From: Patescibacteria group bacterium
GTDB lineage: Bacteria > Patescibacteriota > Patescibacteriia > JBDRGY01
Reading direction: 5' to 3'
Length of the DNA: 64,000 nt
NCBI GenBank assembly: GCA_043817315.1
Contig: JBDRGY010000016.1
Span: 4,863-68,862, forward strand
Made by a program: the position numbers and the translations under genes. The notes beneath the pieces were generated by a model. That model ran no database searches. It saw nothing but the letters and a program-made list of their open reading frames with translations, and was not told the origin of the DNA. This document shows positions 4,699 to 48,866 of this stretch, piece after piece (position 1 is the stretch's first letter; the number at the start of each line of letters is the position of its first letter).

Positions 4699-4866
4699 AG
4701 ATTACAATTAATAAGTAAGCAAATTATAGCAAAAAATGTCTTGTTCTACAAATTGACTAAAGAGACTTTTTGCTTTAATATAGACGATACTTGCCGCGGT
4801 GGCCCCGCTAGACAGCGGGGTAAACTCCACTGGTAGACTTTATGGCATTTTTCTGCCCTTGCTCCT

Positions 4867-4950: not shown

Positions 4951-5010
4951 GAGGCAAGGGCAGACAACGTGCGCACGGCCTGCCCCGCTGGAGCGTAGCG
5001 GAAAGCGGGG

Positions 5011-14406: not shown

Positions 14407-14431
14407 ATGTTTTTAATAAATAAGCACGTTA

Positions 14432-14460
14432 CTGGGAATAAACCAAGGGCTTATTCCCAG
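14432..14460 (-). terminator. Perfect 10-bp-stem hairpin between the HMA-DsbA gene and copA (partial terminator/attenuator)
   Basis: ctgggaataa-accaagggc-ttattcccag. On the minus strand it is followed by an A/T-rich stretch. Confidence 0.4.
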
Positions 14461-14526
14461 CCACCTAATTATTTTTAACAACAAGGATCCATGTTATTGT
14501 CTCCTTATATTAATTTTTTAACGACC

Positions 14527-15543: not shown

Positions 15544-15563
15544 TAATCATTTTATTAATTAAA

Positions 15564-17069: not shown

Positions 17070-17077
17070 GGTATTGA

Positions 17078-17893: not shown

Positions 17894-17899
17894 ATATTT

Positions 17900-18265
17900 T
17901 TACTCACACTTATTACTTGTAAATTCGCAAGATGAGCCAGTGTCTCTAATTAAACCACTTTGACACTGCGGACATGGCTTCTCTCCCCTAGCGATGAATT
18001 GATCACAGGCACAGGTGCCTGCCTGATGATTATTCCATTGGTTGGCTTCCATGAAACACATAGTACAGGGAGGATTAATACAGCATCCATAATCTCCAGC
18101 TGCTACCGCCTTGCTTATAGCTAAGTCTCTTTCTTCGATTATCCTACTTAACATTTCGCCTGGGCCCAAGTTTTCAAAAGCAGGATTCATAATTGTTAAA
18201 ATTAGAAATCCAATTACTCCCCCTATTAGAAACATCGTCAACCAGGTAAGAATTTTCTTAGTCAT
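17900..18265 (-). CDS. Membrane-anchored Cys-rich putative metal-binding protein (PCYCGC-like motif)
   Basis: 121 aa. N-terminal TM helix. 12 Cys including GCCINPPCTMC, TCAC and PCPQC. Confidence 0.45.
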   Translation of the reverse strand: MTKKILTWLTMFLIGGVIGFLILTIMNPAFENLGPGEMLSRIIEERDLAISKAVAAGDYGCCINPPCTMCFMEANQWNNHQAGTCACDQFIARGEKPCPQCQSGLIRDTGSSCEFTSNKCE

Positions 18266-18267
18266 GA

Positions 18268-18546
18268 TTACTTATTAAATAATTTGGTGACGGTTAAAAT
18301 TTCTTTAACCATCTCCTGTTTTCTTTTCTCGTTGGTTGTGCCCATAGCTTTTTTGAAGCAAGTATCGAGATGGTTTTCCATCAACATTTGATGGGCTGAT
18401 TTTAATAGCCCAATAACCGCTAAGTTTTGTTGCATAATGTCTATGCAATATTCATTGTCCTCAAGCATCTGGACAATTTTTGCGATGTGGCTCTGGGCTT
18501 TTTTAAAATTGATCAACGATTTCTCTTTGTGTTTGGTCATAGTCAT
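18268..18546 (-). CDS. csoR: CsoR/RcnR-family metal-sensing transcriptional repressor
   Basis: 92 aa, all-helical DUF156-type. Conserved Cys (YCIDIM), His (SAHQMLMENH) and Cys (DTC) in Cu(I)-CsoR positions. Confidence 0.85.
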   Translation of the reverse strand: MTMTKHKEKSLINFKKAQSHIAKIVQMLEDNEYCIDIMQQNLAVIGLLKSAHQMLMENHLDTCFKKAMGTTNEKRKQEMVKEILTVTKLFNK

Positions 18547-24685: not shown

Positions 24686-25657
24686 TTATTTTTTAAGCTC
24701 AATTACCTCAAAATCAGAATTGCTCACAGTCGAAGTAGAACCAGTAGAGGTCCGCCAAACCGCCTGAAAAGTATGATCACCTTCCAGAACCTGAGTCGTG
24801 CCAAAAAAAGCTAAACTGAAACTTTCGTCAGCCGTACCGGAAGTGCCGCGACGGGCGTAATCGCCGTACGAGTCCCCATCAATTTTCAAACCAATATCAG
24901 TATAACCGCCATTCTGATTGTTTTTAAATGTACCGCTGAACATAATCAAAACATTACTATTGCCAGTGGTCATGGTAAATTCTCCTTCTCCCATTACCTC
25001 ATAGCTGGTGGAAGTAGTGGTTTCACCTATACCAACTCCAGCACCCTGGATATCGGTTATGGCATTGTCAGCAAGATCATCTGTGTCAACTGTCCCGTCT
25101 AATATTTTAGCGCTGGTTACCGCGTTGCTGCCCAATTTACCTACAGAAATGGCTCCATCTTCAATCTTGATACCGCTTACCGCTCCTATGGCCAATTCAT
25201 CTGTATCTACTGCCCCATCAGCTATTTTGGCAGAAGTAACAGCATCAGTCGCCAAGTTAGCTGTAGCAATAATTCCATCGCCCAATAAACTACCAATGGT
25301 CAAAGACCCGGTAACCTCCATATTGTCGTTAACTATAAAAGGCATTTCATCATCTGTGCCAGCAGCCGCACCTCTAAAGACTCTTCCGTCAATCCGGACA
25401 TTGTCACCAAAGGTAACCGGGTTGTCAATATCACCTTCGGCAGTTGTTTCATTGACGATGGTTCCATTGAAGAAGGTAACCCCACCGACTCCTTGTTGAC
25501 CGATCCTGATAGAATCGAAAGGAACGGTTCCCTCTCCGGTAAAACTAGCGGCATAAACAATGCCGACGCAGGTCAGTAAAGAAACCCCAGCTACGGACAA
25601 TGAATAAGCTAATTTTTTCTTCATAGGATTTTTTGATGAATGATTAGTTGATTCCAT
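24686..25657 (-). CDS. Secreted repeat protein (paralog 1) with ~12-aa AVTxAKIxDGxV repeats
   Basis: Signal peptide VYA|ASF. N-terminal ~130 aa about 85 percent identical to the next gene. Internal D/A/T-rich short repeats. Confidence 0.6.
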   Translation of the reverse strand: MESTNHSSKNPMKKKLAYSLSVAGVSLLTCVGIVYAASFTGEGTVPFDSIRIGQQGVGGVTFFNGTIVNETTAEGDIDNPVTFGDNVRIDGRVFRGAAAGTDDEMPFIVNDNMEVTGSLTIGSLLGDGIIATANLATDAVTSAKIADGAVDTDELAIGAVSGIKIEDGAISVGKLGSNAVTSAKILDGTVDTDDLADNAITDIQGAGVGIGETTTSTSYEVMGEGEFTMTTGNSNVLIMFSGTFKNNQNGGYTDIGLKIDGDSYGDYARRGTSGTADESFSLAFFGTTQVLEGDHTFQAVWRTSTGSTSTVSNSDFEVIELKK

Positions 25658-25721
25658 TATATCATTTTTGTAAGAAAAGCGCCGCCTGGACGGCAGCGCC
25701 TTTCTTGCTCAATATCTTTAT

Positions 25722-26570
25722 CTATCTCTTTAACTCAATACAATCAAGGGTGTTGGCATATAGACTAGCTTCTTGGCCGACAACGGTATTCCAGCCCAAC
25801 TGGACTGTGTGATCACCGGACTCTACTTCAAAAATGGCCGAGGTAGTTAGGGTAACGAAACCGTTTCCCCCGCCATTGGTCTGTTTTCGGGCGGTCCTGT
25901 CAATAATCTCATCATCTAGCAGTATCGCTATGGTAATTGCCTGGTCTTCAGCGTCCACTGTCCCATAACCACTAAAAATGCAGAAGAGGTTGCTCTCTCC
26001 GGTGGTAATGTCCAGTTCAGCAGCAATATCGTAGTCGCCACCCGATTCAGTAGTCGTTTGGGTCTGAGTCTGTGAATCTTCAACGGCCTGGGTAACTGCC
26101 CCACCGAGAATCTTGGCTGTGGTAACGGCATCATCAGCTAAATCAGCCGTGGCGATCGTCCCGTCATCAATTTTGGCTGTGGTAACGGCATCATCAGCTA
26201 AATTAGTTGTGTCAATCACCCCGGTTGAGGCCAAGGAACCGATCGTTAAAGACCCCGTCACCTCCATATTGTCATTGACAATAAACGGCATGGTGTCTGC
26301 TGTCCCAGCCGTAGCTCCTCTAAAAACTCGGCCGTCAATTCGCACGTTATCGCCAAAGGTAACCGGGTTATCAGCATCACCAGCCGCAGTTGTTTCATTG
26401 ACGATAGTTCCATTAAAGAAAGTGACTCCGCCAACTCCCTGCTGCCCAATCCTGATGGAGTCAAAAGGAACCGTCCCTTCTCCGGTAAAACTGGCGGCAT
26501 AAACAATGCCAACACAGGTAATCAGGGAAACGCCAGTTACTGCTATTGAGTAGAGAATTTTCTTTTTCAT
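25722..26570 (-). CDS. Secreted repeat protein (paralog 2)
   Basis: Same N-terminal domain and repeat type as 24686..25657. Its own upstream TGaTATAAT -10 and GC hairpin are conserved with the paralog. Confidence 0.6.
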   Translation of the reverse strand: MKKKILYSIAVTGVSLITCVGIVYAASFTGEGTVPFDSIRIGQQGVGGVTFFNGTIVNETTAAGDADNPVTFGDNVRIDGRVFRGATAGTADTMPFIVNDNMEVTGSLTIGSLASTGVIDTTNLADDAVTTAKIDDGTIATADLADDAVTTAKILGGAVTQAVEDSQTQTQTTTESGGDYDIAAELDITTGESNLFCIFSGYGTVDAEDQAITIAILLDDEIIDRTARKQTNGGGNGFVTLTTSAIFEVESGDHTVQLGWNTVVGQEASLYANTLDCIELKR

Positions 26571-27715: not shown

Positions 27716-27826
27716 AGACTACCTCCTTTTGGAGAAGAACTGTGACTTCAAGGAACAGATAGTAAAAAAATGATAACAAGGATATGGCCGACTGTCAATA
27801 ATATATAACCAAGTTATTCTACTCTG

Positions 27827-27899
27827 CTCCCCCGGGTGGTCTCGAACCACCACTCTTCGCATTAACAGTGCGATGTTTTACCAATTAAACTACAGGGGA
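27827..27899 (-). tRNA. tRNA-Asn (anticodon GUU), copy 1 (AT-rich, host-like)
   Basis: tcccctg-ta-gttt-aattggta-aaac...tcgca-ctGTTaa-tgcga...ggtgg-ttcgaga-ccacc-cggggga-g. Layout matches bacterial tRNA-Asn. Confidence 0.8.
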
Positions 27900-28059
27900 G
27901 CAGAAAAGAATAATCAAAAAACCAGTCGCTTACGACTGGCCAGTCAATCCAAACAAAACTAGGCCAGTCAGAACTGGTTGTTGTTATTGTTTAGTTGAAC
28001 TATTACTATCTTCATATTCTAAGTTTAGCGCATTATGGAGAAATTGTCAACTGATCATA

Positions 28060-28848
28060 TTAAAGAGCGGCCTCTTTTAGAGACTGGCTACATTGGCATT
28101 TTGCTTGTTCTGGAAAGTTTTCTATCATCTGTAAAATTAGTTTCTTCAGTTTCTGGTCATTTTTCTTGAAAGTTTTAATGATTGTTTGGGTGGTTGAAGG
28201 CTTGATGCCTTTTACTCCAACTAATCCTGAGTCGTAGTCGGTGATTAGAGAAATATTGAGATAACACATCTGCAGTTCTCTGGCTAAAGCCACTTCTGGA
28301 TATTGAGTCATATTAATAATATCCGCCATGGTGGCGTAATGTTTTGATTCCGCCCTGGTGGCAAAACGAGGCCCTTCAATTACTAAAACCGTTCCTTTGG
28401 GATGATGGACAATCTTTGTTTTCTGACAGCTTTTTATAGCCAGCTTTCTTAAAGCCGGACAATAGCTTTCAGCCACTGAGATATGAACCACTTTGGGTCC
28501 GTCAAAAAAGGTGTCGTTGCCCGCTTTGGTTTTATCAATAAACTGATCACAAATCACCATATGACCGGGCTTAATTTCGGGCTTGAGGGATCCTGCGGCA
28601 CTAGGCGAGATAATTTTCCTAAATCCTAACTTATTGAGCGCAAACAGATTGGCTTTGTAATTAATTTTATGAGGAGGATATTGGTGTTGCTTACCGTGTC
28701 TTGGTAAAAAGGCAATCTGGCTTCCTTGGTGAGTTGAGATTAATATTTTATCAGAAGGATTACCATAAGGAGTTTTGACCGTTACTTCTTTTCCTTTGAA
28801 AAATTGATAAAAACCTGATCCTCCAATTATGCCAATCTTAGTTGCCAT
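28060..28848 (-). CDS. mtnP: S-methyl-5'-thioadenosine phosphorylase / purine nucleoside phosphorylase family 2
   Basis: GIIGGSG N-terminus. Phosphate/ribose-binding region. 262 aa typical. Confidence 0.85.
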   Translation of the reverse strand: MATKIGIIGGSGFYQFFKGKEVTVKTPYGNPSDKILISTHQGSQIAFLPRHGKQHQYPPHKINYKANLFALNKLGFRKIISPSAAGSLKPEIKPGHMVICDQFIDKTKAGNDTFFDGPKVVHISVAESYCPALRKLAIKSCQKTKIVHHPKGTVLVIEGPRFATRAESKHYATMADIINMTQYPEVALARELQMCYLNISLITDYDSGLVGVKGIKPSTTQTIIKTFKKNDQKLKKLILQMIENFPEQAKCQCSQSLKEAAL

Positions 28849-28851
28849 AAA

Positions 28852-29373
28852 TCAAAATTTGATTAATGATTTGACTTGATAGTTTTTTATTTTAGCTTTA
28901 CCTCTGAGGTCTTTTAATTCAATAAAAAATAGAATGCCCACAATATCGCCTCCCATTTTTTTAACCAGATCAACTGAAGCCTTAATAGTACCGCCTGTGG
29001 CCAAAAGATCATCAACCACTAAAATCTTCTCCCCTTCTAATATTGATCTCTGGTGCATTTCGATAGTGTCGGCCGCGTACTCCAAAGAATATTTCTGGCT
29101 CAAAGTTTTATAGGGCAGCTTTCCCTTCTTCCGAACCAAGGCTAAACCGGTTTTCAGTTTGTAGGCCAGAGCTGAAGCCAATATAAAACCGCGAGCGTCA
29201 ATACCCACGATCTTGTCAATCTTTTTGTCCTGATACGGTTTGGCTAATTGATTGATTAAATATTGAAACATTTTTTGGTCTTCCAAAACCGGGGTGATAT
29301 CCCGAAACATAATGCCCGGCTGTGGCCAATTGGGAACGGTACGAATTTTCGCTTTCAGGGTAGTCAGGTTCAT
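28852..29373 (-). CDS. apt: Adenine phosphoribosyltransferase
   Basis: PRPP-binding motif VVDDLLATGGT. 173 aa. Confidence 0.88.
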   Translation of the reverse strand: MNLTTLKAKIRTVPNWPQPGIMFRDITPVLEDQKMFQYLINQLAKPYQDKKIDKIVGIDARGFILASALAYKLKTGLALVRKKGKLPYKTLSQKYSLEYAADTIEMHQRSILEGEKILVVDDLLATGGTIKASVDLVKKMGGDIVGILFFIELKDLRGKAKIKNYQVKSLIKF

Positions 29374-29477
29374 AGCATGATTATTCTAACAAAAAATGAC
29401 CGGCTTGGCGATTGACAGTTCAGCAAAATAAAAAAGCCCGCCTCGAGATAAATCTCTTGGCGGGCACTTAAGGAATC

Positions 29478-31253
29478 CTAGTTACTGGCCTGTTTCAGCT
29501 TGGTAACCCGGGCTGGCTTTTCTGTCAGCAGGCGCATTCGCTCCTGGACAGCGTCGTGGTGATTCAAGGGTTGATTCTCCTTGAAGACAGCAGCCACGGC
29601 CTCAATCAGGTTGTCGTCATGCACCCCAGTGGGCTGGCCACCAGCAGCCTTGTCTCGCTTGATAGCTAGACGGGCTGCCCGGTCGACAATCCCCTTGATC
29701 ATGGCGCCACTAACCAGATGACCTAAGGTGAAAGTCTCTGTCCGTTTTCCCTTGCTGTCATCATCTGGCAGCATCTCGATCCGGTAAAGACCATACTCCT
29801 CAGCAAATAGCCGATTGACTGCGATCTCCACCAGGCGATCAACGGTCAGGCCTTCGGCCAAGGGCAACTGCCCCAAGTAGAGTCGGAAGATAGCAGCAGC
29901 GGCTTCCCGATCGGGCCTGCCTACGTAGAGCTTGAGATCACAACGGCCGTCGCGAGTAACAGCGGGATCCAGGACATCAGGCCGATTGGTAGCCACCAAC
30001 ACTATGGCGCTACTCTCCTTCATGCCTGACATCTCAGCCAAGAACATGGGCACAATAGTATCGCGCACATCTGAGCTGACTCCCTCACCCCGCTTGGGCA
30101 GAATAGCCTCGGCTTCGTCGATGAATATCACTACAGGCAGGCCGTACCTTTTCTTGTAGTACTCGGCTCGCAGGAACAGACGGCGAATCCGGCCTTCAGC
30201 AGTTCCAACCCACTTCTCCAGGATCTCCGGACCCTTGACGTAAATGAAGCCAACCGGAATACTCCTGTCTTTGGCCAGACGAACGATCTCCGTGGCCAAA
30301 GCCTTGCCCAACATGGTCTTGCCACAACCCGGGGGACCGATTAGGGCAGCTCCGACGATCGGCTTCTGACCGTAGTGAGCATAGAGCTCTGGTTCGTCCA
30401 AGTGGCCGACTACCGCTTCCCGCAACGTCTCTTTGATCTCGTCCAGGCCAGCAATGTCTTCCCAAGTGACGTCAGTTTCATCGGTTAGAGTCAGGAAGGA
30501 TTCTTCCTCCCCCAAGCAGTCAACAATCACTGTAGCTGAGGAATCAATAATCACCCGGAAACCAACTTCGATTTCACCGGTAAACTGGCCGGCCAGGATC
30601 ATTCTGCGGGCACCATGAAAATCGATCTCACAACGGTCATCATCAACCACTCGCTGAACTGTGACGATTTCTCCGTAGTCTTCTAGACCAACAACGCCTA
30701 GGATCTGAGAAGTGCTGCGGCTCAGTTTGACCGTATCTCCGGGCTTGATCTCCAGGTCTTTCGGATATTCAACCTCCAGACGCTGGCTACTGATAGCCAC
30801 TACAACCTTTCGCTGGTTGATGGCAATCAGTTCGATCTCGCGATCTGGGTTTGTCATTTCAGCTATACCTACGCCGAAATACTCAGACGAACCATCGGCA
30901 AAGCCAACAAGGACTTCGCCATTGTCGTCAACATCTCCGAAAACATAGCCAGGCTGACCGACCAGCTGCTCATTGTGGCAGCTGGCAGTGATACGGACCA
31001 GAGTACCATAAGGCAGGTCGGTATAGTCAACTTCTACCTCAGATTCAGTCGGTTCCAGAATAGCAATAGCTACTCCGTAAGCTACTGGCTGAGAAAACAG
31101 CTGCAATACCCGACGAGCCATCTCCTGAACCTTGACTCTGGCTCTCATTCGGCCTCGTCGGCTACTGTGTCTGCCGGTCAGGATTTCTTCCTCTTCTGGA
31201 CCGGGAAAGGCGTCCATAAAATCTCTAATCGGATCATTAGAATTACCCACCAC
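29478..31253 (-). CDS. AAA+ ATPase with N-terminal tandem OB/beta-barrel-like domains (ARC/PAN/Mpa-like architecture), GC-rich
   Basis: Walker A GPPGCGKT. Walker B VIFIDEAEA. Second region of homology and sensor residues. About 280-aa non-ATPase N-terminus. GTG start with GGAGG RBS. Confidence 0.8.
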   Translation of the reverse strand: MVGNSNDPIRDFMDAFPGPEEEEILTGRHSSRRGRMRARVKVQEMARRVLQLFSQPVAYGVAIAILEPTESEVEVDYTDLPYGTLVRITASCHNEQLVGQPGYVFGDVDDNGEVLVGFADGSSEYFGVGIAEMTNPDREIELIAINQRKVVVAISSQRLEVEYPKDLEIKPGDTVKLSRSTSQILGVVGLEDYGEIVTVQRVVDDDRCEIDFHGARRMILAGQFTGEIEVGFRVIIDSSATVIVDCLGEEESFLTLTDETDVTWEDIAGLDEIKETLREAVVGHLDEPELYAHYGQKPIVGAALIGPPGCGKTMLGKALATEIVRLAKDRSIPVGFIYVKGPEILEKWVGTAEGRIRRLFLRAEYYKKRYGLPVVIFIDEAEAILPKRGEGVSSDVRDTIVPMFLAEMSGMKESSAIVLVATNRPDVLDPAVTRDGRCDLKLYVGRPDREAAAAIFRLYLGQLPLAEGLTVDRLVEIAVNRLFAEEYGLYRIEMLPDDDSKGKRTETFTLGHLVSGAMIKGIVDRAARLAIKRDKAAGGQPTGVHDDNLIEAVAAVFKENQPLNHHDAVQERMRLLTEKPARVTKLKQASN

Positions 31254-31409
31254 ATCCTCCTTGGCCTTAGGCCTGTTTATTTTCCATTCTCAAAGAACAA
31301 ATCGATTCCCCAAATTATCATAAACCAATGGTGCTGTCAAGCAGGGAGTGGGCAGGAAAAACTGAAGAAAATCTTGTTGGGTTACTAGAAACAATAGGTT
31401 AAATCGAGA

Positions 31410-31428
31410 TCAAGCCCTTAGGGCTTGA
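31410..31428. promoter_or_regulatory. Perfect 8-bp inverted repeat overlapping a TTGACA -35-like hexamer in the divergent promoter region
   Basis: TCAAGCCC-tta-GGGCTTGAca. A/T-rich -10 candidates lie 12-17 nt downstream. Confidence 0.3.
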
Positions 31429-31627
31429 CAAATCTAGATATTTATTATAAGGTAGACCATTCTATTTGGGACGAATTAGCTTCAAATAGAGGGTACTTTG
31501 ACATCTGAATAATCCAAGGAAAAAACGATAAAAACAGAAGAAAATCCCTTAGTTGGGAGGAAGGAGTTCTGATGGATTACTGCCCGTAAGCAACATTGGA
31601 AACACGCACCCGAAAGGAGAAACGAAA

Positions 31628-32281
31628 ATGGCTCCACGACGGAGTTTCAAGGATAGGTTCCTTGACATGGTCATCGAGCGAGAGGATCCGGTCACGCCGG
31701 CTGCTCCTCAGCCCAGACCTGGTTCTACTACATCCACCACACCCATGGTTGTTACACCTTCAAATCCATCAGTCAATCAGGAAATGTTGACAGCCCTGAT
31801 GGACGAGGTGCTCAGGCAGTCAGGATCTGACTACACCGCTTTTCACCAGATCTATGACTCGCTGGATGGAGTACCTGACGAAGCGACTCGCTATCGGGCC
31901 GCCTTCAAGAGTGCAAGTAAGATGGCAGGTCTGACCCGAGAACGCCTGTTGACTGCCCTGAGAAGACGCCCGGCCATCCTGGCCACTGAAATCCAGGAGA
32001 TCGAGGCTACTCTGGGACAGAAAGAGCAGGCCGAAGTCGGCAGTAAGCAATCCGAGATCCAGATGATCGACAGTCAGTTGGCTGAAGATCAGAGACGGAT
32101 CACTGAGATCCAGAGAGATATGACATCTCGCCAGACGCGCCGTACTCAGCTTATGGCCGAGAAGTCTGCGGGTGAAGCCAGCTTGGCTGCATCCAAGGCC
32201 AGAGTCGGGGCTACTGCTACTGCTGCTAAAGCCAAGATCGCAGATGAGTTGCGCAAGGTGGAAGCTTACATCACTACCTGA
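31628..32281 (+). CDS. Hypothetical coiled-coil protein with PspA-like N-terminal amphipathic helix and Pro/Thr-rich linker
   Basis: ATG at 31628 with AAGGAG RBS. N-terminus SFKDRFLDMVIEREDPV resembles the PspA/IM30 start motif (F..RF.D.V...EDP). C-terminal long helices. Confidence 0.5.
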   Translation: MAPRRSFKDRFLDMVIEREDPVTPAAPQPRPGSTTSTTPMVVTPSNPSVNQEMLTALMDEVLRQSGSDYTAFHQIYDSLDGVPDEATRYRAAFKSASKMAGLTRERLLTALRRRPAILATEIQEIEATLGQKEQAEVGSKQSEIQMIDSQLAEDQRRITEIQRDMTSRQTRRTQLMAEKSAGEASLAASKARVGATATAAKAKIADELRKVEAYITT

Positions 32282-32297
32282 AAGGGGGTAAAACCAG

Positions 32298-33359
32298 ATG
32301 GGACCTGATCTTACTAACCCGGGCGATCTTACCGCCAAGGTAAAATCGTTTTGGGAAAGACCAGAGGGTCGCCCTGGAGCTGTTATAGTGGCTCTACTTG
32401 CCGCTGCTGTCGGGGTAGGTTTTCTCAATTTCGTTCTACCTCATCTCCACCTCCTGTTCATGAACCTAACCCGCACTCTCATTTCCGGCACTACGCTGCT
32501 GGTTCTGGCCAAAATCATAACGGCCAAGCGAACCAGAGTTCTGTTCTGGAATATGCTCAAGAGTGTGTCTCGGCTGATCGCCAAGACCTACGCCGAGCTT
32601 GATCCCATTGGGATCATGAGAAACACTCTGGCAGATATGAGGGACCAGTACCGCAACCTGGATAAGCAGGCCGGTATTGTGCGTGGCGTGATGGAAACGC
32701 TGAATGAGTTGATGGAGAAAAGTGCCCGCCAGATGAAGGAATCTCTGGGTTTGCTCAAGCAGGCTCAGAAGCGCCAGATGACATCTCAGCTGGTGCTGCA
32801 AAGCCGTCGAGCGGGTCGCCGGAAGGACAACATTATTACCTTCCAGGAACTCCATCACAAGCTGGAACTGATTCTGCGAGTACTGATCAAGTACATGGAA
32901 GCAGCCAAAGTGCACATTGATGATCTTGAAGACGACATCATGGTGCAGGAACAGAAACGCAAAGGGATGCGGGCTGCTTCTTCAGCAATTCGTTCCGCCA
33001 GAAGCATCTTCGTTACCGATCAGCAGACCGAGCTTTTCAACCTGGCTACCGAAGCCTTGGCTGAAGACTACGGCCGTAAACTGGGAGAGATCAAGCATTT
33101 TGTGGAGATCTCCCAAGGCATGGTCGATGGTATCGATCTGAGAAACGGTAAGCTGGAAGAAGAGGCTCTGGAACTGCTGGAACAGTGGGAGAGCGATCCT
33201 AGCTCTTTCGCCATTCCCGGCATGGAAAAGCAGAGGCTGATTGCCGTGTCCAACGACCCCAATGAAGTCCTGGACATCGACAGTACTCAGCCCGACGTTC
33301 GCAGTATGCCAACAGCATCCGGAAGCAAAGATCAGAAGTGGGATGAGTTTCTGGAGTAG
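32298..33359 (+). CDS. Hypothetical membrane-anchored coiled-coil protein (PspA/IM30- or TelA-like, weak)
   Basis: One N-terminal TM helix then about 250 aa of heptad-like helical sequence beginning AELDPIGIMRNTLADMRDQYRNL (EDP..M...L.DM pattern). Confidence 0.45.
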   Translation: MGPDLTNPGDLTAKVKSFWERPEGRPGAVIVALLAAAVGVGFLNFVLPHLHLLFMNLTRTLISGTTLLVLAKIITAKRTRVLFWNMLKSVSRLIAKTYAELDPIGIMRNTLADMRDQYRNLDKQAGIVRGVMETLNELMEKSARQMKESLGLLKQAQKRQMTSQLVLQSRRAGRRKDNIITFQELHHKLELILRVLIKYMEAAKVHIDDLEDDIMVQEQKRKGMRAASSAIRSARSIFVTDQQTELFNLATEALAEDYGRKLGEIKHFVEISQGMVDGIDLRNGKLEEEALELLEQWESDPSSFAIPGMEKQRLIAVSNDPNEVLDIDSTQPDVRSMPTASGSKDQKWDEFLE

Positions 33360-33413
33360 TTCAGGTACCTGCAGCAAGACATTTGTTGGTTCTACTCAAA
33401 GGAGGGATCGGTT

Positions 33414-34961
33414 ATGCCTCGACTCACCAGAGGTGCTGGGAATTTCCTGTTGGTTATCGCCGTTCTGGCGATAGTCGCAGGTGGATACACGGCAGTTCAG
33501 AGAGGTTGGTTCGGCATCGGTACTAGCAACCAGGCAGCTCCAGCTGGTCCGGTCACGGTAGCTACCGGCGAGACCATTGACCCCATCAATGTCCACGTGG
33601 TCACTTGGTGGGGTTGCGCCGGCGGCGTTCTGGCCAATAACGGATTTTCTCCAAACGAAGACTGCGACTACTACCGTAAGCATAACATTCTGGTCAAGTT
33701 CAACCTGATAGATGTGTTGCCAAACTCATGGGATGCTTGGAAAACCGGAGAAATTGATATTCTCGCCTACACGGCAGAATCTCTGGCTCCGCTTCTCCCT
33801 ATCCTGTGGGACTATGACCCGGTGGTATTCTTCAGTGAAGACAGGTCTCAGGGTGGCGATGTCATTCTGGCCCGCGAAGGCATCAATTCAATGGTTGACC
33901 TTCGTGGCCGTCAGGTAGTTTACTGCCAGGATGCTCCTTCCCAGAGTGTGCTTCTGCATGCTCTGGACGCCGCCAACATGACTCTGGACGACATCATCCC
34001 CATTACGACCGATGATGTCATTCTGGCAGGCAACATGTTTGAAGCCGATCCGGAGATTGCGGCCGCCGCAGTCTGGAGTCCGGAAGATGCCAGAATCATG
34101 GCTGCTGATCCGCGTGTTCATGTCTTGTTCAGTACTAAGGACGCGGATCACATCATCTTCGATGTCATGCTGGTTAAGCGAGACTGGTACGAGGCCAATT
34201 TCGATGAGGTAGTGGCCTTCCTGGAAGGCTGGTTCGGAGGTGTAGCTAGGATCTACAACAACCCAGCCGACAAAAGAAAGGCACTGCAGCTAATGGCTGA
34301 CGGCACAGGCCTCGGCGTAGATTTCTTCAAGGATACGGCTGACGGTTTTCACCTCAATACCTACGGGGATAACGTCAATATCTTCAACCTCAATGGTAAC
34401 TACCAGGGTGTGACCGCCAAGGACGTCTACGAAGAAACCGCTGCACTGTACCAGAGAATTGATCGAGTTGGAAACGATCTTCCCCTCTGGCGCAGAATCT
34501 CTGACACCAAGGCACTCCGTGCTCTTAGTCACCTACGTGGACCTGGCTACGATGCGACAGAAGTATCTCGTTTCTCAAAAGCCGGTCCAGAGAAAAGAAC
34601 TGAGAGAGAGATCACCAGTAAGCCGGTAACTGTCAACTTCGGCTTCGATTCAAATGAGTTGGACGCCAACGCTCGAAACATCATCGATGCCGAATTTGGC
34701 GACCAGGCCCAGATGTTCGGCAACATGTACATCAGAATCGTCGGCAATACCGACAGTGTCGGTGACTACCAGTACAACGTCAGGTTGTCTGAGCAGAGAG
34801 CTCAGGCGGTAGCTGACTATCTGGCTGCCCGTTACCACATTGACCGGTACCGTTTCATTATCATCGGTAACGGACCCAACAACCCGGTGGCCAACAACAA
34901 CACCGATGCTGGCAAAACCAGGAATCGGCGTACTGATTTCGAACTGGTCCGGAGGGACTAG
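33414..34961 (+). CDS. Fusion protein: TM anchor + NMT1/SsuA-like ABC substrate-binding domain + C-terminal OmpA-like peptidoglycan-binding domain
   Basis: N-terminal hydrophobic helix. About 330-aa periplasmic-binding-protein-like region. C-terminal NTDSVGDYQYNVRLSEQRAQAVADYL...RRTDFELV OmpA_C signature. Confidence 0.7.
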   Translation: MPRLTRGAGNFLLVIAVLAIVAGGYTAVQRGWFGIGTSNQAAPAGPVTVATGETIDPINVHVVTWWGCAGGVLANNGFSPNEDCDYYRKHNILVKFNLIDVLPNSWDAWKTGEIDILAYTAESLAPLLPILWDYDPVVFFSEDRSQGGDVILAREGINSMVDLRGRQVVYCQDAPSQSVLLHALDAANMTLDDIIPITTDDVILAGNMFEADPEIAAAAVWSPEDARIMAADPRVHVLFSTKDADHIIFDVMLVKRDWYEANFDEVVAFLEGWFGGVARIYNNPADKRKALQLMADGTGLGVDFFKDTADGFHLNTYGDNVNIFNLNGNYQGVTAKDVYEETAALYQRIDRVGNDLPLWRRISDTKALRALSHLRGPGYDATEVSRFSKAGPEKRTEREITSKPVTVNFGFDSNELDANARNIIDAEFGDQAQMFGNMYIRIVGNTDSVGDYQYNVRLSEQRAQAVADYLAARYHIDRYRFIIIGNGPNNPVANNNTDAGKTRNRRTDFELVRRD

Positions 34962-35041
34962 GTAGGAAATGTTCATTGGGGCAGGCGTCTTCTATCGTCT
35001 GCCCCTGTTTTTTCCTTTCTAGCTAACCAAGAGGGGGAAAG

Positions 35042-35827
35042 ATGCAATTGTTCGAACTGCGCGGATCCCTCCCTAACCGGACTAGGCTGATTCTGCAACT
35101 GGGAGGAATGATCTTCTTTATTACCCTGTGGTGGGCTGTAGTTCAGTATTTTGAGATCAAACCCAGCCTGCTGCCCTCACCAGAAAAGGTGTTGCTGGCT
35201 TTCAAACCACTTTACTTCGAAAGCAACATCCTCTACCACTCCTCTATCTCTATCAAGCTCAATGTCTTGGGCTATCTGGAAGCTGTGGCCATTGCCATAC
35301 CGCTAGGATTTTTAATCGGTTTGTTCCCTTTCTTTCGGGGACTGCTGATGCGATATGTCATTGTCCTGCGCTACTTGCCCCTGACAGCACTCTTGGGCTT
35401 GATGATTCTCTGGTTCGGGATTGGGATCAATATGAAGGTCCAGTTCCTGGCTCTGGGTATCCTGGTCTATCTACTACCGGTAGTAGTCCAGCGAATAGAC
35501 GAGGTCAAAAAGATCTACGTCTACACCGCCCAGACTCTAGGCGCCAGTAAATGGCAGATCATCAAAGCTGTCTTTATCCCCGATGTCATTTCTAGGGTAT
35601 TTGACGACATCCGGGTGCTGGTAGCCATCTCCTGGACTTACATCATCATCACCGAGGTTATAAACCGTAACCAGGGTGGTGTCGGGGCTGTCATCTACGG
35701 AGCCCAGCGTCGCGGTAAGTTGGATGAGGCTTTTGCTGGCCTAATAGTCATCATCCTGATCGGCTTTCTGCAAGATCGGTTGATGGTATTCTTTGACCGT
35801 CGGTTCTTCCGGCACAAATACGTCTAG
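35042..35827 (+). CDS. ABC transporter permease (NitT/TauT/SsuC family)
   Basis: 6 TM. Binding-protein-dependent transport inner-membrane component pattern. Confidence 0.8.
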   Translation: MQLFELRGSLPNRTRLILQLGGMIFFITLWWAVVQYFEIKPSLLPSPEKVLLAFKPLYFESNILYHSSISIKLNVLGYLEAVAIAIPLGFLIGLFPFFRGLLMRYVIVLRYLPLTALLGLMILWFGIGINMKVQFLALGILVYLLPVVVQRIDEVKKIYVYTAQTLGASKWQIIKAVFIPDVISRVFDDIRVLVAISWTYIIITEVINRNQGGVGAVIYGAQRRGKLDEAFAGLIVIILIGFLQDRLMVFFDRRFFRHKYV

Positions 35828-35836
35828 GGGGTGGGC

Positions 35837-36652
35837 ATGGCAGACTCAAATACGACCCGTGTCGCCTTTCCCAACACCGAGCTGCCGGATGTTATCGATC
35901 TACGTAAAATCGGGATGATCTATGACGGACGGGTGGAGGTTCTAAAAGACTTCGACCTACTAATCGAGGATAAACCCGGACAAGGTCAGTTCGTGGTCAT
36001 CCTCGGCATGTCAGGTTGTGGCAAATCCACCGTTTTGCGGATCATCGCCGGTATACAGGAACCGACAGCCGGTGAGGTGTTCATCTATGGACATCCCAGA
36101 AAGGAAGTTGAACCAACTAGTATGGTGTTCCAAAGCTTTCCCTGCTATCCCTGGGCCACCGTACTAGAAAATGTCCGCCTAGGTCTGGACTTTAAGGGAA
36201 TTCCCCGGTATGAAGGCAATGAAAAGGCCCAGGAAATGATCGAGATGGTCGGACTAGGAGGGCACGAGCGTAAGCTGCCTGCCGAACTGTCCGGTGGACA
36301 GCAACAGCGAGTGGCAATTGCCAGGAGCTTAGTCTTCAACCCCAAGCTGCTGCTGATGGATGAGCCGTTTGGCGCCCTAGATACCTACACTAGGGGGAAA
36401 ATGCAGCAGCAATTAGAAGAGCTGTGGGAAAGGCTACAATGCACAGTCATCTTTGTCACCCATGACATCCAGGAAGCGGTTTTCTTGGGAGATGACATCT
36501 ACGTGATGGAAAGGCACCCCGGCTTTATCTGTCACCACTTCCCGGTTCCGCTGGGTTTCCATCGGGATCGGTCCACCAAGCATGGTGCTGAGTTTGTTAA
36601 GTTGGTCAATGATGTCGATGACTTCATTCACGACATGGCAGCTCACGACTAG
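35837..36652 (+). CDS. ABC transporter ATP-binding protein (NitT/TauT/SsuB family)
   Basis: [36 protein letters not shown]. Alternative GTG start at 35831. Confidence 0.88.
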
Positions 36653-36677
36653 TATCTCAAGGAGGAATCGTTCTTTC

Positions 36678-36714
36678 GGCAGGAGAGTCAACTGACGCTC
36701 CTGCCGATTTTTTT
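36678..36714 (+). terminator. Rho-independent terminator of the GC-rich ABC operon
   Basis: ggcaggag-agtcaactgacg-ctcctgcc followed by gattttttt. Confidence 0.6.
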
Positions 36715-36740
36715 ATATTAAAAAACCGCCCTAATGGCGA
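36707..36740 (-). terminator. Rho-independent terminator for the minus-strand tRNA-Asn cluster
   Basis: On the minus strand: atcgccattagggcgg followed by ttttttaatataaaaaaa. Confidence 0.5.
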
Positions 36741-36802
36741 TTTAATATTTGGCTCCGCCCTGCACCATTTGGTGCAAGACTCCGCTGGGCAAGTAAAATA
36801 TG

Positions 36803-36875
36803 TGGCTCCGCGAGACGCCTGCCTGCCGGCAGGCAGGGACTCGAACCAGCGACCCACTGGTTAACCCCGCATGTC
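36803..36875 (-). pseudogene. Degenerate tRNA-Asn-like copy with encoded CCA and an inserted perfect palindrome. Not foldable as a tRNA
   Basis: Minus strand: ...gggGTTAACCAGTGGGTCGcTGGTTCGAGTCC-ctgcctgccggcaggcagg-cgtcTCGCGGAGCCA. It retains the anticodon-loop-to-T-arm string and acceptor 3' strand of copy 2 but lacks a matching 5' acceptor. Confidence 0.45.
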
Positions 36876-36949
36876 CTCCTCGACTCCGCTCGGAGTCCTG
36901 CGGGACAGACAGCCAGGGAATTAATATCTTTTTACCCAAGAGCGCATTG

Positions 36950-37022
36950 CTCCGCGAGTCGGACTCGAACCGACGACCCACTGGTTAACAGCCAGTTGCT
37001 CTACCAACTGAGCTATCGCGGA
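36950..37022 (-). tRNA. tRNA-Asn (anticodon GUU), copy 2 (GC-rich, sequence distinct from copy 1)
   Basis: tccgcga-ta-gctc-agttggtag-agc...actgg-ctGTTaa-ccagt...gtcgg-ttcgagt-ccgac-tcgcgga-g. Confidence 0.8.
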
Positions 37023-37250
37023 GCAATGCGCTCTTCTATATAGTATAAAACAGTTGCGGCATTTACCCCGCCGTATGGCGGGGCCAACTGAGCTATCCAG
37101 GAAGACAAAATTCACTTATCTAATTAGTATGAGAGACCCATCCCGCCAACGGCGGGATTGCTCTACTTCTATATGGGAACTGCCAGCCAGAGGCTGGTCC
37201 GCCTCTGGCGGAAGCTATCGCGGAGCTTTGGGCACAATAACGATATTATA
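37023..37250. repeat. Cluster of tRNA-Asn 5'-fragments (D-arm and acceptor pieces) and GC hairpins between tRNA-Asn copy 2 and rpoD
   Basis: ccaactgagctatcc (37084-37098) and gaagctatcgcggagc (37216-37231) repeat parts of tRNA-Asn copy 2. Hairpins ccccgccgtatggcgggg, cccgccaacggcggg and ccagccagaggctgg are present. Confidence 0.4.
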
Positions 37251-37255
37251 AAATC

Positions 37256-38458
37256 CTAATAATCTCTTAGTTTCTTCATCCCTTCATGTTCCTGGATTCT
37301 TTCCAGGGCCTTGGCTTCAATCTGCCTGATTCTTTCTCTGGTTACTCCGAATTCCTGACCGACCTGTTCCAGGGTATGGGCAATGCCGTCAGTCAAACCA
37401 AAACGCATTTCCAGGATTTTCTGCTCGCGGGGAGTTAATTCGGTAATAATCTCCCTGACATGATCTTTGAGAAGCTGCAGGGCAGCGGATCGCGAAGGGG
37501 TAATCGTCTTGACGTCTTCGATAAAGTCTCCCAGAGTGGAATCTTCATCGTCTTCTCCCACTGAAGTTTCCAGAGAGACAGTGTCTTGAGATATTTTAAT
37601 AATGTGGTGAATCTTGTCAACCGGCTCACCCATCTCCGCGGCAATCTCTTCGGGCAAAGGCTCCCGGCCCAGACTTTGAATCAGCTGGCGCTGAATCTGG
37701 GTAAATTTATTGATGGTCTCCACCATATGCACCGGGATTCTGATGATTCTGGATTGGTCAGCCAAAGCTCTGGTAATGGCTTGGCGAATCCACCAGGTGG
37801 CATAGGTAGAAAACTTATACCCTTTCCTGTAGTCAAACTTTTCCACGGCCCGGAACAAACCAACGTTACCTTCCTGGATCAAGTCTAGTAAAGAAAGGCT
37901 GCGGCCGGTAAACTTTTTAGCAATGGAAACCACTAGGCGCAGATTGGCTTCAATCAATTTCTTCTGAGCCGCTACATCGCCCTTTTCTTTTCTTTTGGCC
38001 AGTTTGATCTCTTCTTCAGCGGTCAACAGCGGTACCTTACCGATTTCCCTCAAATACATCTGGATAGAATCAGAAGCGATGTCGGCCAAATCAAATCGTC
38101 TTTTGTCAGAAGATTTCTTGGACTGGAGCACTTCTTCTTTTAAAGGTGCGCCCAAAAGACTGGTTTCTGTCTCTACTACCTCAATTCCCAAATCATCGAA
38201 TTTATCCAGCAAATCTTCGTATTCCTCGATGTATTCTTCCAACTCGGGCAGGGCGTAGAGTACTTCTGTTTCCGTAATAAAGTCCCGGGAGCGGCCCTTT
38301 TGGATCAGCAGGCCAATCTTATCATAAGGAAACTCGGCCTTGACCCTCCTGGTCCTGGTGGTTTTAGCGACTTTGGCGCGCGGCTTGGCCTTTTTGAACG
38401 GCTTTTTGGCAACCGCTTTAGTCTTTTTCTTGGTTGTATTAGTTTTAGCTTTAGGCAT
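37256..38458 (-). CDS. rpoD: RNA polymerase primary sigma factor (sigma-70)
   Basis: Regions 2-4 conserved ([40 protein letters not shown]). Basic N-terminal tail. Confidence 0.9.
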
Positions 38459-48777: not shown

Positions 48778-48779
48778 AG

Positions 48780-48866
48780 CGGAGAGGGAGGGATTTGAAC
48801 CCTCGAGACCCTTGCGAGCCTACTTGCTTTCCAAGCAAGCGCACTAGACCACTATGCGACCTCTCC
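48780..48866 (-). tRNA. tRNA-Ser (anticodon GGA), type II
   Basis: ggagagg-tc-gca-tagtggtctag-tgc-g-cttgc-ttGGAaa-gcaag-long variable arm-gaggg-ttcaaat-ccctc-cctctcc-g. Confidence 0.8.

Follow-up and report, generated by a model that had tools for sequence, protein, structure and literature searches.

Gene content and composition

Between a tRNA-Asn(GUU) gene at 27826..27899 (copy 1) and rpoD at 37256..38458, both on the reverse strand, the 64-kb stretch of DNA analysed here (the window) contains an AT-rich purine-salvage pair, a GC-rich module of six protein-coding genes and a second tRNA-Asn(GUU) gene at 36949..37022 (copy 2, reverse strand). GC content is 0.48-0.53 per kb at 29-37 kb versus about 0.37-0.46 across most of the window, and lies at 0.50-0.56 from 29.4 to about 36.7 kb, against a comparison level of about 0.42. 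In 300-nt windows, the left edge is a step from 0.42 at 29,200-29,499 to 0.52-0.58 from 29,350 on, and on the right side GC declines across rpoD, reaching 0.33-0.35 by 38.4 kb. GC3 is 0.56-0.64 in six island genes versus 0.32-0.49 in most other genes of the window, and the GC-normalised tetranucleotide correlation to the rest of the window falls to 0.52-0.58, compared with 0.81-0.92 in the majority of other windows; the next-lowest region stands at 0.73, which makes the island the strongest outlier. The GC-rich part is foreign in composition. Genes at 25.7-27.7 kb, past tRNA-Asn copy 1, are likewise GC-enriched (0.49-0.56).

The salvage genes lie on the reverse strand and are host-like in composition. 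mtnP (28060..28848; GC 0.39) encodes S-methyl-5'-thioadenosine phosphorylase, with matches to PF01048 and TIGR01694 (282.8, cut-off 274.85), and apt (28852..29373; GC 0.40) encodes adenine phosphoribosyltransferase, with matches to PF00156 and to the NCBIfam apt equivalog models above their cut-offs; the strain-level contig L001 encodes an Apt protein 99% identical to it.

The first gene of the GC-rich cargo encodes a classical-clade AAA+ ATPase (29478..31253, reverse strand; PF00004) and is transcribed divergently from a five-gene operon. Its best NCBIfam match is the Mpa/ARC model TIGR03689, which covers residues 39-588 at 295 bits, far under the 505-bit cut-off; on this comparison, the protein resembles ARC/Mpa over its full length while not being an equivalog. 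Unlike the Mpa/ARC/PAN proteasomal ATPases, its conserved partners are the two helical proteins described below and not a protease, and the window shows no proteasome or Pup genes. Over its N-terminal ~240 aa, the ATPase is highly diverged from that of strain L001/P0002. Homologs adjoin cc1-cc2 in L084, L099, L117, L120 and L131, and all homologs with names are from Patescibacteria.

The operon, on the forward strand, opens with cc1 (31553..32281, likely start near 31,628), which encodes a coiled-coil protein that is proline-rich at its N-terminus and belongs to no Pfam family. phmmer matches at the syntenic position occur in L084, L089, Lak phage and a 735-kb phage (E 2e-12 to 5e-6), and searches against the PDB and Pfam returned generic coiled-coil matches only, which do not reach a PspA assignment. 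cc2 (32298..33359; 323 aa from the NCBI start) encodes a membrane-anchored helical protein, also with no Pfam family. Its AlphaFold2 model is all-helical (pLDDT 79), and the 12 best Foldseek matches in the PDB are Vipp1/PspA structures with probabilities up to 1.0, although E values are 3e-3 at best and long helical hairpins draw non-specific matches. The L084 ortholog of cc2 gives a faint PspA_IM30 match. The predicted fold of cc2 is PspA/Vipp1 (ESCRT-III superfamily)-like.

The remaining operon genes encode an ABC importer. The substrate-binding protein (33414..34961; PF09084 and PF00691) is of the NMT1/THI5 type within the NitT/TauT family and is fused to a C-terminal OmpA-like peptidoglycan-binding domain (OmpA_C). 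A hairpin followed by a T-run, terminator- or attenuator-like in a consensus scan (34978..35005, forward strand), lies between this gene and that of a TauC/SsuC/SaoP-like permease (35042..35827; PF00528 and NCBIfam), which is followed by the ATP-binding protein gene (35831..36652; PF00005) and the operon terminator (36676..36707, forward strand), inverted repeat I1 with a 15-bp stem and a T-run. The terminator is the last inserted element and has no counterpart in the island-free relative L095.

The original prediction, made from the letters and open reading frames, had described a GC-rich island in AT-rich surroundings with an ARC/PAN-like AAA+ ATPase, two coiled-coil proteins and a complete ABC importer with its own terminator. 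This cargo was recovered, with the ATPase below the model cut-off and the coiled-coil pair as two helical proteins lacking Pfam families, and the sliding-window GC and tetranucleotide profiles proposed as a check both reveal a discontinuity.

Likeness to known systems

Ravi et al. (mSystems 2024, PMC11237479) have already described a related operon type, exemplified by OGG56892.1 from Candidatus Handelsmanbacteria, in which genes for PspA and a TM-anchored Snf7-like protein are combined with those for an AAA+ ATPase, an ABC ATPase, a permease and a PBPB+OmpA protein. Gene order differs from those operons, the AAA+ gene being divergent here, and cc1 carries no PspA assignment; in their AAA+ protein the N-terminal AAA copy is inactive, whereas the N-terminal part of the window protein aligns to Mpa/ARC. 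By its gene content, the module would belong to this known operon type, while its huge-phage distribution emerges from the present analysis, the words "phage genome" being absent from the main text of PMC11237479.

As in the ESCRT-III/Vps4 (CdvB/CdvC) and PspA/Vipp1 systems, a gene for a predicted helical-hairpin, polymer-type protein lies beside one for a classical AAA+ ATPase. Here, however, an MIT domain and a Vps4 equivalog are both lacking (the CdvC model gives 121 bits, its cut-off being 650 bits), cc2 is anchored by a TM segment of its own, and an ABC importer is coupled to the system. The importer shares its permease and ATPase families and the NMT1/THI5-type fold family of its binding protein with NitT/TauT importers (TauABC, SsuABC, ThiXYZ), but differs from them in the OmpA-like peptidoglycan anchor and in the two coiled-coil genes that start the operon. 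We propose that the cargo couples an ESCRT-III-like (PspA/Snf7 superfamily) membrane-remodelling pair and a classical AAA+ ATPase to a peptidoglycan-anchored ABC importer, and that it may remodel or maintain the membrane using ATP, together with solute import. A thiamine-pyrimidine-like or sulfonate-like compound may be the imported substrate.

Distribution of the module in bacteria and huge phages

The GC-rich module spans 7.3 kb and comprises the AAA+ gene divergent from cc1, cc2, the OmpA-fused binding protein, the permease and the ABC ATPase. All six genes are present in a Chitinophagales MAG, whose copy includes a TenA/THI-4 gene, and five are present in L100. Identities to the window proteins in L084 are 44% for AAA, 27% for cc1 and 35% for cc2. 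The nearest cluster found, on L088 from an organism of 56% GC, holds cc2, the binding protein, the permease (72%) and the ATPase (65%) at just 44-72% protein identity; no donor was found, so that composition is what argues for a recent transfer. Named homologs of the binding protein come from Chitinophagales, Chloroflexia and Azoarcus. From these comparisons, the module appears to be mobile, patchily distributed over unrelated bacteria and very common in huge phages.

The phage copies raise the possibility that the module is a huge-phage remnant or a phage-transduced gene block and did not come from another bacterium, which we consider possible, if on balance doubtful. The five-gene operon keeps its gene order in Lak megaphages, in the 735-kb phage LR756501, as in L089, and on about 40 IMG/VR contigs, many of them 200-500 kb: cc2 homologs were found on 50 such contigs, 41 of which carry the full ordered set, and on 3 the AAA gene lies directly upstream of it. 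The Ralstonia jumbo phage RsoM2USA also has the cc1-cc2 pair, and Bacillus phage G has the ABC part. The binding protein gives a full-length match to phrog_25518 (E 7e-42) and has homologs in Lak phages, LR756501 and phage G (gp249/gp250). Against this, no phage structural, packaging or replication genes were found in or beside the island, the cellular copies in L099, L100 and L088 equal or exceed the viral ones in similarity, and transfer between phage and host could run in either direction.

Empty sites in relatives and the origin of the segment

Presence of the segment is polymorphic among relatives. Three metagenome contigs, L095, L096 and L098, lack the island; these are short contigs of different species, with RpoD 90-96% identical to that of the window in amino acids and rpoD 81-85% identical in nucleotides. 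In L095 and L096, rpoD is followed by a tRNA-Asn identical to copy 2, one small ORF (135-137 aa) and a second tRNA-Asn. The two tRNA genes lie about 0.8 kb apart with solely this ORF between them, and none of the eight island genes is present at this locus. Given that both tRNA genes occur in these island-free contigs, the pair is ancestral. In L098, which also lacks mtnP here, rpoD and a tRNA-Asn are followed by a homolog of the 25.7-kb surface protein of the window.

Alignment to L095 shows that a small-ORF stretch of about 0.45 kb is exchanged in the window for a segment of 8.65 kb (~28,065-36,714), and no homolog of the small ORF was found anywhere in the window. The 8-mer TTTAATAT occurs at both junctions (28057..28064 and 36715..36722, reverse strand), and the small-ORF cassette of L095 has it at either end. 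The left copy contains the mtnP stop codon, and homology to L095 possibly extends up to ~28,081; at the right copy, L095 homology restarts. Thus, the variable segment is wider than the GC-rich part: the GC step near 29.4 kb taken as a boundary in the original prediction is real, yet the apt/mtnP pair that it called native-looking falls within the segment that the relatives lack. Both flanks are native: on the right, rpoD, whose product matches the Pfam sigma-70 regions, belongs to the native flank and the DNA at positions 40-45 kb is collinear with L098, and on the left, homologs of the genes h186 and h282 are found in L096 and L098. Across the rpoD 3' end, identity is 85% between the window and L095, 81% between the window and L096 and 82.5% between L095 and L096; the window is thus closest to L095, and the state common to L095 and L096 is most simply ancestral, with the proviso that this tree is built on 438 nt.

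We therefore favour, at a probability of roughly 0.75, an 8.65-kb insert at an ancestral tandem tRNA-Asn locus, where it would have replaced the small ORF. The ancestral order would have been dnaG, rpoD, tRNA-Asn, small ORF and second tRNA-Asn, and gain in the lineage of the window and its strain-level relative L001 is preferred to loss in the other relatives. The segment would be a mosaic of apt-mtnP and the foreign-composition module, and the host-like composition of the salvage genes makes a single-event origin of the whole 8.65 kb doubtful. Such an insert would be a genomic island of an ordinary kind, with moderately interesting cargo; genomic islands are common in Patescibacteria (PMC12455944).

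It is improbable that the island is instead ancestral and was deleted from L095, L096 and L098, with the small ORF arising or moving in later. In its favour, apt and mtnP are native in composition and useful for salvage, several events could have occurred among relatives that are separate species, and the phylogeny comes from a short stretch. However, this history requires at least two independent deletions with identical end points and leaves the orthologous small ORF shared by L095, the closest relative of the window, and L096 to be accounted for. The foreign GC3 and tetranucleotide usage of the GC-rich part also speak against it, as an old resident would be expected to drift to host composition; in L099 and L100 the module has done so, its GC there matching its surroundings, unlike in the window.

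Joining of another organism's GC-rich DNA to a Patescibacteria contig during assembly or binning is very unlikely. The composition change is abrupt in a metagenome-assembled genome, and the 36.7-kb and mtnP/tRNA junctions are covered by no independent assembly. Yet L001 and L002, independent assemblies from other samples, contain the AAA-apt-mtnP stretch with its GC step (95% nucleotide identity), which counts against a chimera at that point. Moreover, the DNA is collinear with relatives on both sides with exactly one cassette replaced, the junction repeats are too short to mis-join contigs, and the two tRNA-Asn genes share only 66% over 29 nt.

tRNA-Asn genes and mode of entry

Both tRNA-Asn(GUU) genes named in the original prediction are genuine (Rfam 69 bits for copy 1 and 73 bits for copy 2; ARAGORN). 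Copy 2 is the ancestral tRNA at a conserved post-rpoD position: it is 100% identical in L095, L096 and L098, and the order rpoD then tRNA-Asn recurs in the distant Patescibacteria L003, L006, L010, L018 and L027. On its 3' side, a terminator-like hairpin from the consensus scan (36723..36743, reverse strand) belongs to the native flank and has an equivalent in L096. Two partial 3' tRNA-Asn copies also lie there, at 36751..36869 (reverse strand); one extends from the anticodon loop as far as ...GGAGCCA, its T stem interrupted by a 20-nt palindrome, and the other is a second GCGGAGCCA end. Upstream of copy 2, one or more decayed tRNA-Asn copies (37084..37226, reverse strand) are broken by GC hairpins and carry TCCCGCCGTTGGCGGGA in place of the anticodon arm. 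These partial copies and GC hairpins are confirmed within 36,750-37,230, where Rfam calls no tRNA for them. The 36751..36869 fragment is also found in L095 and L096, and L098 has a fuller version of the decayed copy (32 nt identical to the window). Because fragments and hairpins alike occur in these island-free relatives, they are older than the island and not scars of this insertion.

An integrative element that inserted site-specifically with its own GC-rich tRNA-Asn, the tRNA genes and fragments marking its attachment sites, is the least credible reading: the direct orientation of the two genes on either side of the segment, the partial copies adjoining copy 2 and the start of GC-rich DNA downstream of a tRNA 3' end would suit it, but the model is contradicted by the empty sites of L095 and L096, which hold both genes and fragments, by the conserved copy 2, by junctions lying outside the tRNA genes (~235 nt beyond one and ~160 nt before the other), by the lack of a tRNA-derived repeat at the far end and of an integrase in the 64 kb, and by the matched leader/trailer helix of each tRNA, which shows that neither is a recombinant hybrid. 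The claim that the DNA had brought its own tRNA-Asn fails accordingly, and copy 2 is compositionally ordinary, although its degenerate copies and hairpins are present as described; horizontal acquisition itself is supported by the foreign composition, the absence from three relatives and the patchy module.

For the favoured insertion at the tandem tRNA locus, where neither an integrase nor att repeats were found, entry would have been by recombination in the conserved flanks of that locus, for example by allelic replacement after DNA uptake. As originally noted, no integrase was detected, nor was any recombinase or transposase, by Pfam in ORFs scanned across the window. The segment resembles tRNA-linked genomic islands and integrative elements in its foreign composition, tRNA neighbourhood, presence or absence among relatives and accessory cargo; unlike in these, no integrase or tRNA-derived att repeats were found, the junctions lie outside the tRNA genes, and the replaced cassette lay between two tandem tRNA genes that were already in place.

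Copy 1 is the distal member of the ancestral pair. A promoter-like site 5' of it (TTGACA-17-TAAACT, 28022..28050, reverse strand; consensus scan) lies in the native left flank and is conserved in both L095 and L096, at the point where their homology to the window restarts. The gene itself has strongly diverged from its positional counterpart in L095 and L096, with compensated changes in all four stems and an extended leader/trailer helix, and at 51% GC it is the odd one out among the tRNAs of the window, the others having 58-64%. Of the two copies, it is this AT-rich tRNA at 27,826, taken as native in the original prediction, that is divergent and fast-changing.

Composition and extent of the variable segment

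Sliding composition profiles set the 29-37 kb region apart from its surroundings, with GC per kb of 0.48-0.53 compared with ~0.37-0.46 for most of the window, and with the GC-rich part itself at 0.50-0.56 versus ~0.42. In 300-nt windows, a GC of 0.42 at 29.2 kb gives way to 0.52-0.58 by 29.6 kb, exactly at the intergenic gap between apt and the AAA+ ATPase gene, and on the right side drops only gradually across rpoD (37,256-38,458, minus strand). The six genes of the GC-rich stretch have GC3 values of 0.56-0.64 (0.32-0.49 in most other window genes) and GC1 values of 0.53-0.65, and the GC-normalised tetranucleotide correlation with the rest of the window, computed in 4-kb windows, is 0.52-0.58 inside the stretch, compared with 0.81-0.92 for most other windows and 0.73 for the next-lowest region. 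Because GC3 and GC-normalised tetranucleotides deviate too, amino-acid content and expression were rejected as the source of the GC richness, and the discontinuity anticipated in the original prediction is borne out by all three profiles. The genes at 25.7-27.7 kb, past the first tRNA-Asn gene, are likewise GC-enriched; part of the local rise is due to the Gly, Ala, Thr and Asp content of two paralogous secreted proteins (24,686-25,657 and 25,722-26,570), whose repeats match phage tail-fibre PHROGs.

Relatives that lack the island define its limits. A scan of species-representative genomes with RpoD gave a best identity of 72% and no island genes downstream of rpoD, although a same-strand tRNA-Asn(GTT) follows rpoD in several Patescibacteria (L003, L006, L010, L018 and L027). 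Closer relatives were retrieved from JGI metagenomes using the first 49 nt of the tRNA gene at 36,949, namely contigs L095 (RpoD C-terminus 96% identical to that of the window), L096 (RpoD 94%) and L098 (RpoD 90%, DnaG 73%, collinear out to window 40-45 kb). L095 and L096 share the order rpoD, tRNA-Asn (100% identical to the window gene at 36,949), an ORF of 135-137 aa and a second tRNA-Asn, the two tRNA genes being ~0.8 kb apart. Beyond this pair, L096 encodes a homolog of the membrane protein at window 26.7 kb; the tRNA-Asn of L098 has a homolog of the 25.7-kb surface protein immediately after it, which argues that the secreted pair at 24,686-26,570 represents surface proteins of the native genome, as opposed to relics of a prophage. 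All eight genes of the run that begins with mtnP and ends with the ABC ATPase are missing from these three contigs.

In pairwise alignments, homology ends at ~36,715, immediately outside the terminator of the ABC genes, and at ~28,064 (possibly extending to 28,081), at the mtnP stop codon and ahead of a conserved TTGACA-17-TAAACT promoter of the second tRNA. Both junctions fall outside both tRNA genes. These homology ends make the variable segment ~8.65 kb long, wider than its GC-rich part, and place it where the relatives have the small ORF, for which no homolog was found in the window. The apt and mtnP genes (the latter encoding MTA phosphorylase; both assigned with Pfam and NCBIfam) form the AT-rich part of the segment and are its compositional exception. 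They had been described as native-looking, which holds for their host-like composition but not for their position, as they lie inside the variable segment and are missing from the island-free contigs.

Over the last 438 nt of rpoD, identity is 85% between window and L095, 81% between window and L096 and 82.5% between L095 and L096. Given these values and the small-ORF state shared by L095 and L096, the simplest reading of the sequences is a gain in the window's lineage, and the foreign composition, which extends over 7.3 of the 8.65 kb, agrees with it.

Independent assemblies and variation within the island

A strain-level relative, assembled independently in ENA (L001) and Logan (L002), is 95% identical at the nucleotide level over window 28,167-30,851 and reproduces both the AAA-apt-mtnP order and the GC step (AAA 0.56, apt 0.41), so the composition boundary between apt and the AAA+ gene is not an assembly artefact. 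The segment is polymorphic for presence and absence, being missing from L095, L096 and L098 and present, at least in its AAA-to-mtnP part, in L001 and L002. The N-terminal ~240 aa of the AAA+ protein (30,530-31,253) and the neighbouring gene cc1 (31,553-32,281) are strongly diverged from L001, with everything downstream nearly identical. Such divergence between strains that are otherwise 95% identical indicates a hot spot of recombination or diversification inside the island, among co-existing variants. Exact-protein searches with the AAA+ protein, once as the window ORF and once as P0001, matched no indexed contig.

The tRNA-Asn genes and their flanks

ARAGORN and Rfam agree on the two predicted tRNA-Asn(GTT) genes, copy 1 at 27,826-27,899 (69 bits) and copy 2 at 36,949-37,022 (73 bits), both on the minus strand. 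Copy 2 had been described as GC-rich, but tRNAs of the window are typically 58-64% GC and it is copy 1, at 51%, that is the outlier. Copy 2 resembles the rpoD-linked tRNA-Asn of other Patescibacteria, and copy 1 has an atypical D arm and variable region. Relative to its positional counterparts in L095 (1366-1439) and L096 (1519-1592), copy 1 differs in all four stems, always with compensating changes; the flank upstream of it matches L095 at 85% identity, and conservation of the proximal tRNA-Asn is complete (100%). Copy 1 thus looks, from these alignments, like a fast-evolving or cassette-replaced second isoacceptor copy; its 5' 47 nt have no exact match in IMG/VR.

Leader/trailer helices of 11-14 bp prolong the acceptor stem in four of the six tRNA genes, those for Leu (4,866-4,951), both Asn and Ser (48,779-48,866), taking in ~15 nt on each side; CCA is encoded in none of these four genes, and is encoded in both tRNA-Met genes, which have no such extension. 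An extension of this type is also found on the second tRNA-Asn of L095, and the extended helices suggest an unusual precursor-processing route. Because the helix of each tRNA-Asn is perfectly matched, neither gene is a recombinant hybrid.

The 600 nt that separate the ABC ATPase gene from rpoD do contain the degenerate tRNA-Asn copies, fragments and hairpins noted in the original prediction, as partial copies alternating with GC-rich hairpins. A permissive Rfam scan of 36.6-37.3 kb calls none of them a tRNA and detects no family but the intact tRNA. One of these, at 37,110-37,226 (minus strand), is a tandem tRNA-Asn copy with GC hairpins inserted in its D region and its anticodon arm replaced by TCCCGCCGTTGGCGGGA. 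A complete version of this interrupted copy lies upstream of the tRNA-Asn in L098, where 32 nt including the replacement hairpin are identical to the window though the 3' end of rpoD is just 81% identical; this copy may represent a tRNA-like element that is conserved in the interval from rpoD to the tRNA. Island-free relatives have tRNA fragments as well, with an upstream fragment and hairpins in L095, the fuller interrupted copy in L098 and a downstream 3' fragment in L095 and L096.

Probable mode of acquisition

That the segment is horizontally acquired DNA is supported by its foreign composition and by the relatives that lack it, but the idea that it brought its own tRNA-Asn is refuted. Both tRNA genes predate the island, the one adjacent to rpoD being the conserved, invariant copy; tRNA fragments occur without the island, neither tRNA is a hybrid, and a search of the window for an att-like repeat of the 3' or 5' part of tRNA-Asn at the island's far end found none. 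Proximity of a GC-rich tRNA to a GC-rich island is, as a lesson of method, no evidence of joint arrival. A better description of the locus is a pair of tandem tRNA-Asn genes that enclose an exchangeable cassette, with decaying tRNA duplicates in the flanks.

The 8-mer TTTAATAT at 28,057-28,064 and 36,715-36,722 (minus strand) was considered as a target-site duplication and rejected as one; the 8-mer also brackets the cassette of island-free L095 in the same orientation (780 and 1203, its sole two copies there), L096 has neither copy at these positions, and the window has four minus-strand copies of which these are two. Integrase-mediated islands that target tRNA genes share with this segment a deviating composition and presence/absence polymorphism, but here there is no insertion within a tRNA, no distal repeat of the tRNA 3' end and no integrase, Pfam scans of ORFs across the 64 kb having found no integrase, recombinase or transposase, in line with the earlier observation. 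Given the lack of integrase and att repeats, and conserved flanks that are usable as homology, the most economical mechanism would be that DNA was taken up and recombined, or that a related strain supplied the segment by allelic replacement. A composite origin, or one in two steps, is suggested by the host-like composition of apt and mtnP.

Patescibacteria are well known to carry genomic islands (PMC12455944). The present segment offers a clean example of gene gain in a streamlined genome of this group, without an integrase and with relatives that show the site empty; the tandem tRNA locus that received it acts as a hot spot of cassette exchange. In a separate Patescibacteria-like genome (L086; GCA_964512925.1, 1-21 kb), a mobile-looking region adjoining dnaG-rpoD encodes an AAA+ homolog (47%), along with a large serine recombinase, an S24 repressor, AbiEii, RadC and a retron/DGR-type reverse transcriptase with bAvd. 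Insertions may recur in the vicinity of dnaG-rpoD.

Cargo genes and their proposed function

Pfam and NCBIfam searches agree with the predicted gene content, an AAA+ ATPase, two coiled-coil proteins and a complete ABC importer, and the predicted terminator is present as a strong hairpin with a T-run. The importer is encoded by three consecutive genes for a binding protein that fuses an NMT1-type domain (PF09084) to OmpA_C (PF00691), a TauC-like permease (PF00528) and an ABC ATPase (PF00005). The 591-aa AAA+ protein (29,478-31,253, minus strand; PF00004, E 7e-31) best matches pup_AAA, CDC48, PAN and FtsH models, its best NCBIfam hit being the Mpa/ARC model TIGR03689, far under cut-off (295.4 vs 504.75). 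We rejected assignment as an Mpa/ARC proteasome ATPase on this equivalog cut-off and on the lack of proteasome genes among the window ORFs scanned; NCBIfam models do not support a Vps4 equivalog either. The AAA+ gene adjoins cc1-cc2 both here and in L084, L099, L117, L120 and L131.

The two helical proteins, cc1 (31,553-32,281, plus strand) and cc2 (32,298-33,359, plus strand), have no Pfam family. An AlphaFold2 model of cc2 (38 homologs, pLDDT 79) consists of helices throughout, those of the N-terminus giving way to long hairpins, and its 12 best PDB matches are Vipp1/PspA proteins of the ESCRT-III superfamily, at modest E values of 3e-3 to 6e-2; one ortholog gives a faint PspA_IM30 match. 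In cc1, synteny is conserved and the sequence matches only generic coiled coils, as do 35 cc1 homologs searched against Pfam, with no PspA assignment. Profiles of cc1 and cc2 against PDB sequences returned coiled-coil noise only, and PADLOC returned generic ATPase and MotB-like matches and no known defence system.

Operons described in PMC11237479 combine PspA, a TM-anchored divergent Snf7, a classical AAA+ ATPase, an ABC ATPase, a permease and a PBPB+OmpA solute-binding protein, and were read by their authors as ATP-dependent membrane remodelling tied to solute transport. The classical-clade AAA+, OmpA-fused binding protein, permease and ABC ATPase of that operon type are also found here, and the Vipp1/PspA matches of cc2 agree with its description. 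In the most likely mechanism, which we adopt from that work and which beyond gene co-conservation we infer, cc2 would form a membrane-associated ESCRT-III-like assembly with cc1, the AAA+ ATPase would remodel this assembly, and the peptidoglycan-tethered binding protein would supply a NitT/TauT-type importer. The imported substrate could perhaps be a thiamine-pyrimidine-like compound, to judge from the NMT1/THI5 fold and from the TenA gene next to the Bacteroidota copy. With islands documented in Patescibacteria and the operon type described, both are already known, and the window island is a further case of known kinds.

Conservation of the module in cells and huge phages

The GC-rich part is not a random assortment, as its genes recur together elsewhere. 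AAA+ (44%), cc1 (27%) and cc2 (35%) are consecutive in L084 (GC 0.61); cc2, binding protein, permease and ATPase occur in L088 (GC 0.56) at 44-72% identity; and a Chitinophagales genome has all six cargo genes in one direction with a TenA/THI-4 gene inserted, with five of six in L100. Module GC equals that of its surroundings in L099 and L100, unlike in the window.

Viral contigs carry the module widely. A PHROG family aligns with the entire length of the binding protein, for which tblastn also gives matches in Lak megaphages, the 735-kb phage LR756501 and Bacillus phage G (L092); a cc2 homolog is present in Ralstonia jumbo phage RsoM2USA (L093). In Lak, LR756501 and L089, single-sequence phmmer places cc1 and cc2 directly upstream of the binding-protein gene. 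Scanning IMG/VR with a cc2-family profile yielded 50 contigs, many of 200-500 kb, with cc1 directly upstream of cc2 in 49. In 41 of the contigs, genes for the binding protein, permease and ATPase then follow, ordered as in the window; most others stop too close behind cc2 to show whether these genes are there. Three contigs have an AAA+ gene immediately upstream. The cc1-cc2-binding protein-permease-ATPase operon is thus strictly collinear in dozens of huge-phage contigs (L090, L091 and L101-L150) of GC 0.27-0.63. This strict collinear conservation is what is new beyond the searchable literature: the huge-phage distribution is apparently unmentioned in a jumbo-phage comparative review and in PMC11237479, and literature term searches found no paper.

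Pfam and PHROGs searches speak against a prophage or phage remnant, since the segment gave no matches to phage genes for structure, packaging, lysis or replication; PHROGs match only function-unknown families, for the AAA+ and binding proteins, and no virion or terminase genes. A more specific, though tentative, proposal, to which we assign a probability of roughly 0.3, is that an ultra-small Patescibacteria cell captured its GC-rich cargo as a huge-phage hallmark module that unites an ESCRT-III-like remodeller with an AAA+ ATPase and a peptidoglycan-anchored ABC importer. Cellular and viral copies are about equally distant from the window and none is close enough to name a donor, and IMG/VR single-protein scans with the permease and AAA+ found no close viral relative. 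If the module is truly a phage device that manages host envelope and nutrient uptake in long infections, its presence here would be a sign of phage-to-host domestication in a minimal-genome cell. The cargo joins three rarely combined subjects, bacterial ESCRT-III-like proteins, a peptidoglycan-tethered ABC importer and huge phages, and its wide collinear presence in the latter makes it a candidate for the study of membrane integrity and solute uptake in giant phages and some tiny bacteria.

Other features of the window

A metal-handling cluster at 12,241-18,546 encodes a P-type ATPase with HMA, a DsbA-like protein with HMA, a DsbD_2 protein with HMA and cupredoxin, an FtrD-like protein with HMA and a CsoR-type repressor. 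The genes parA and parB lie at 3.1-4.7 kb.
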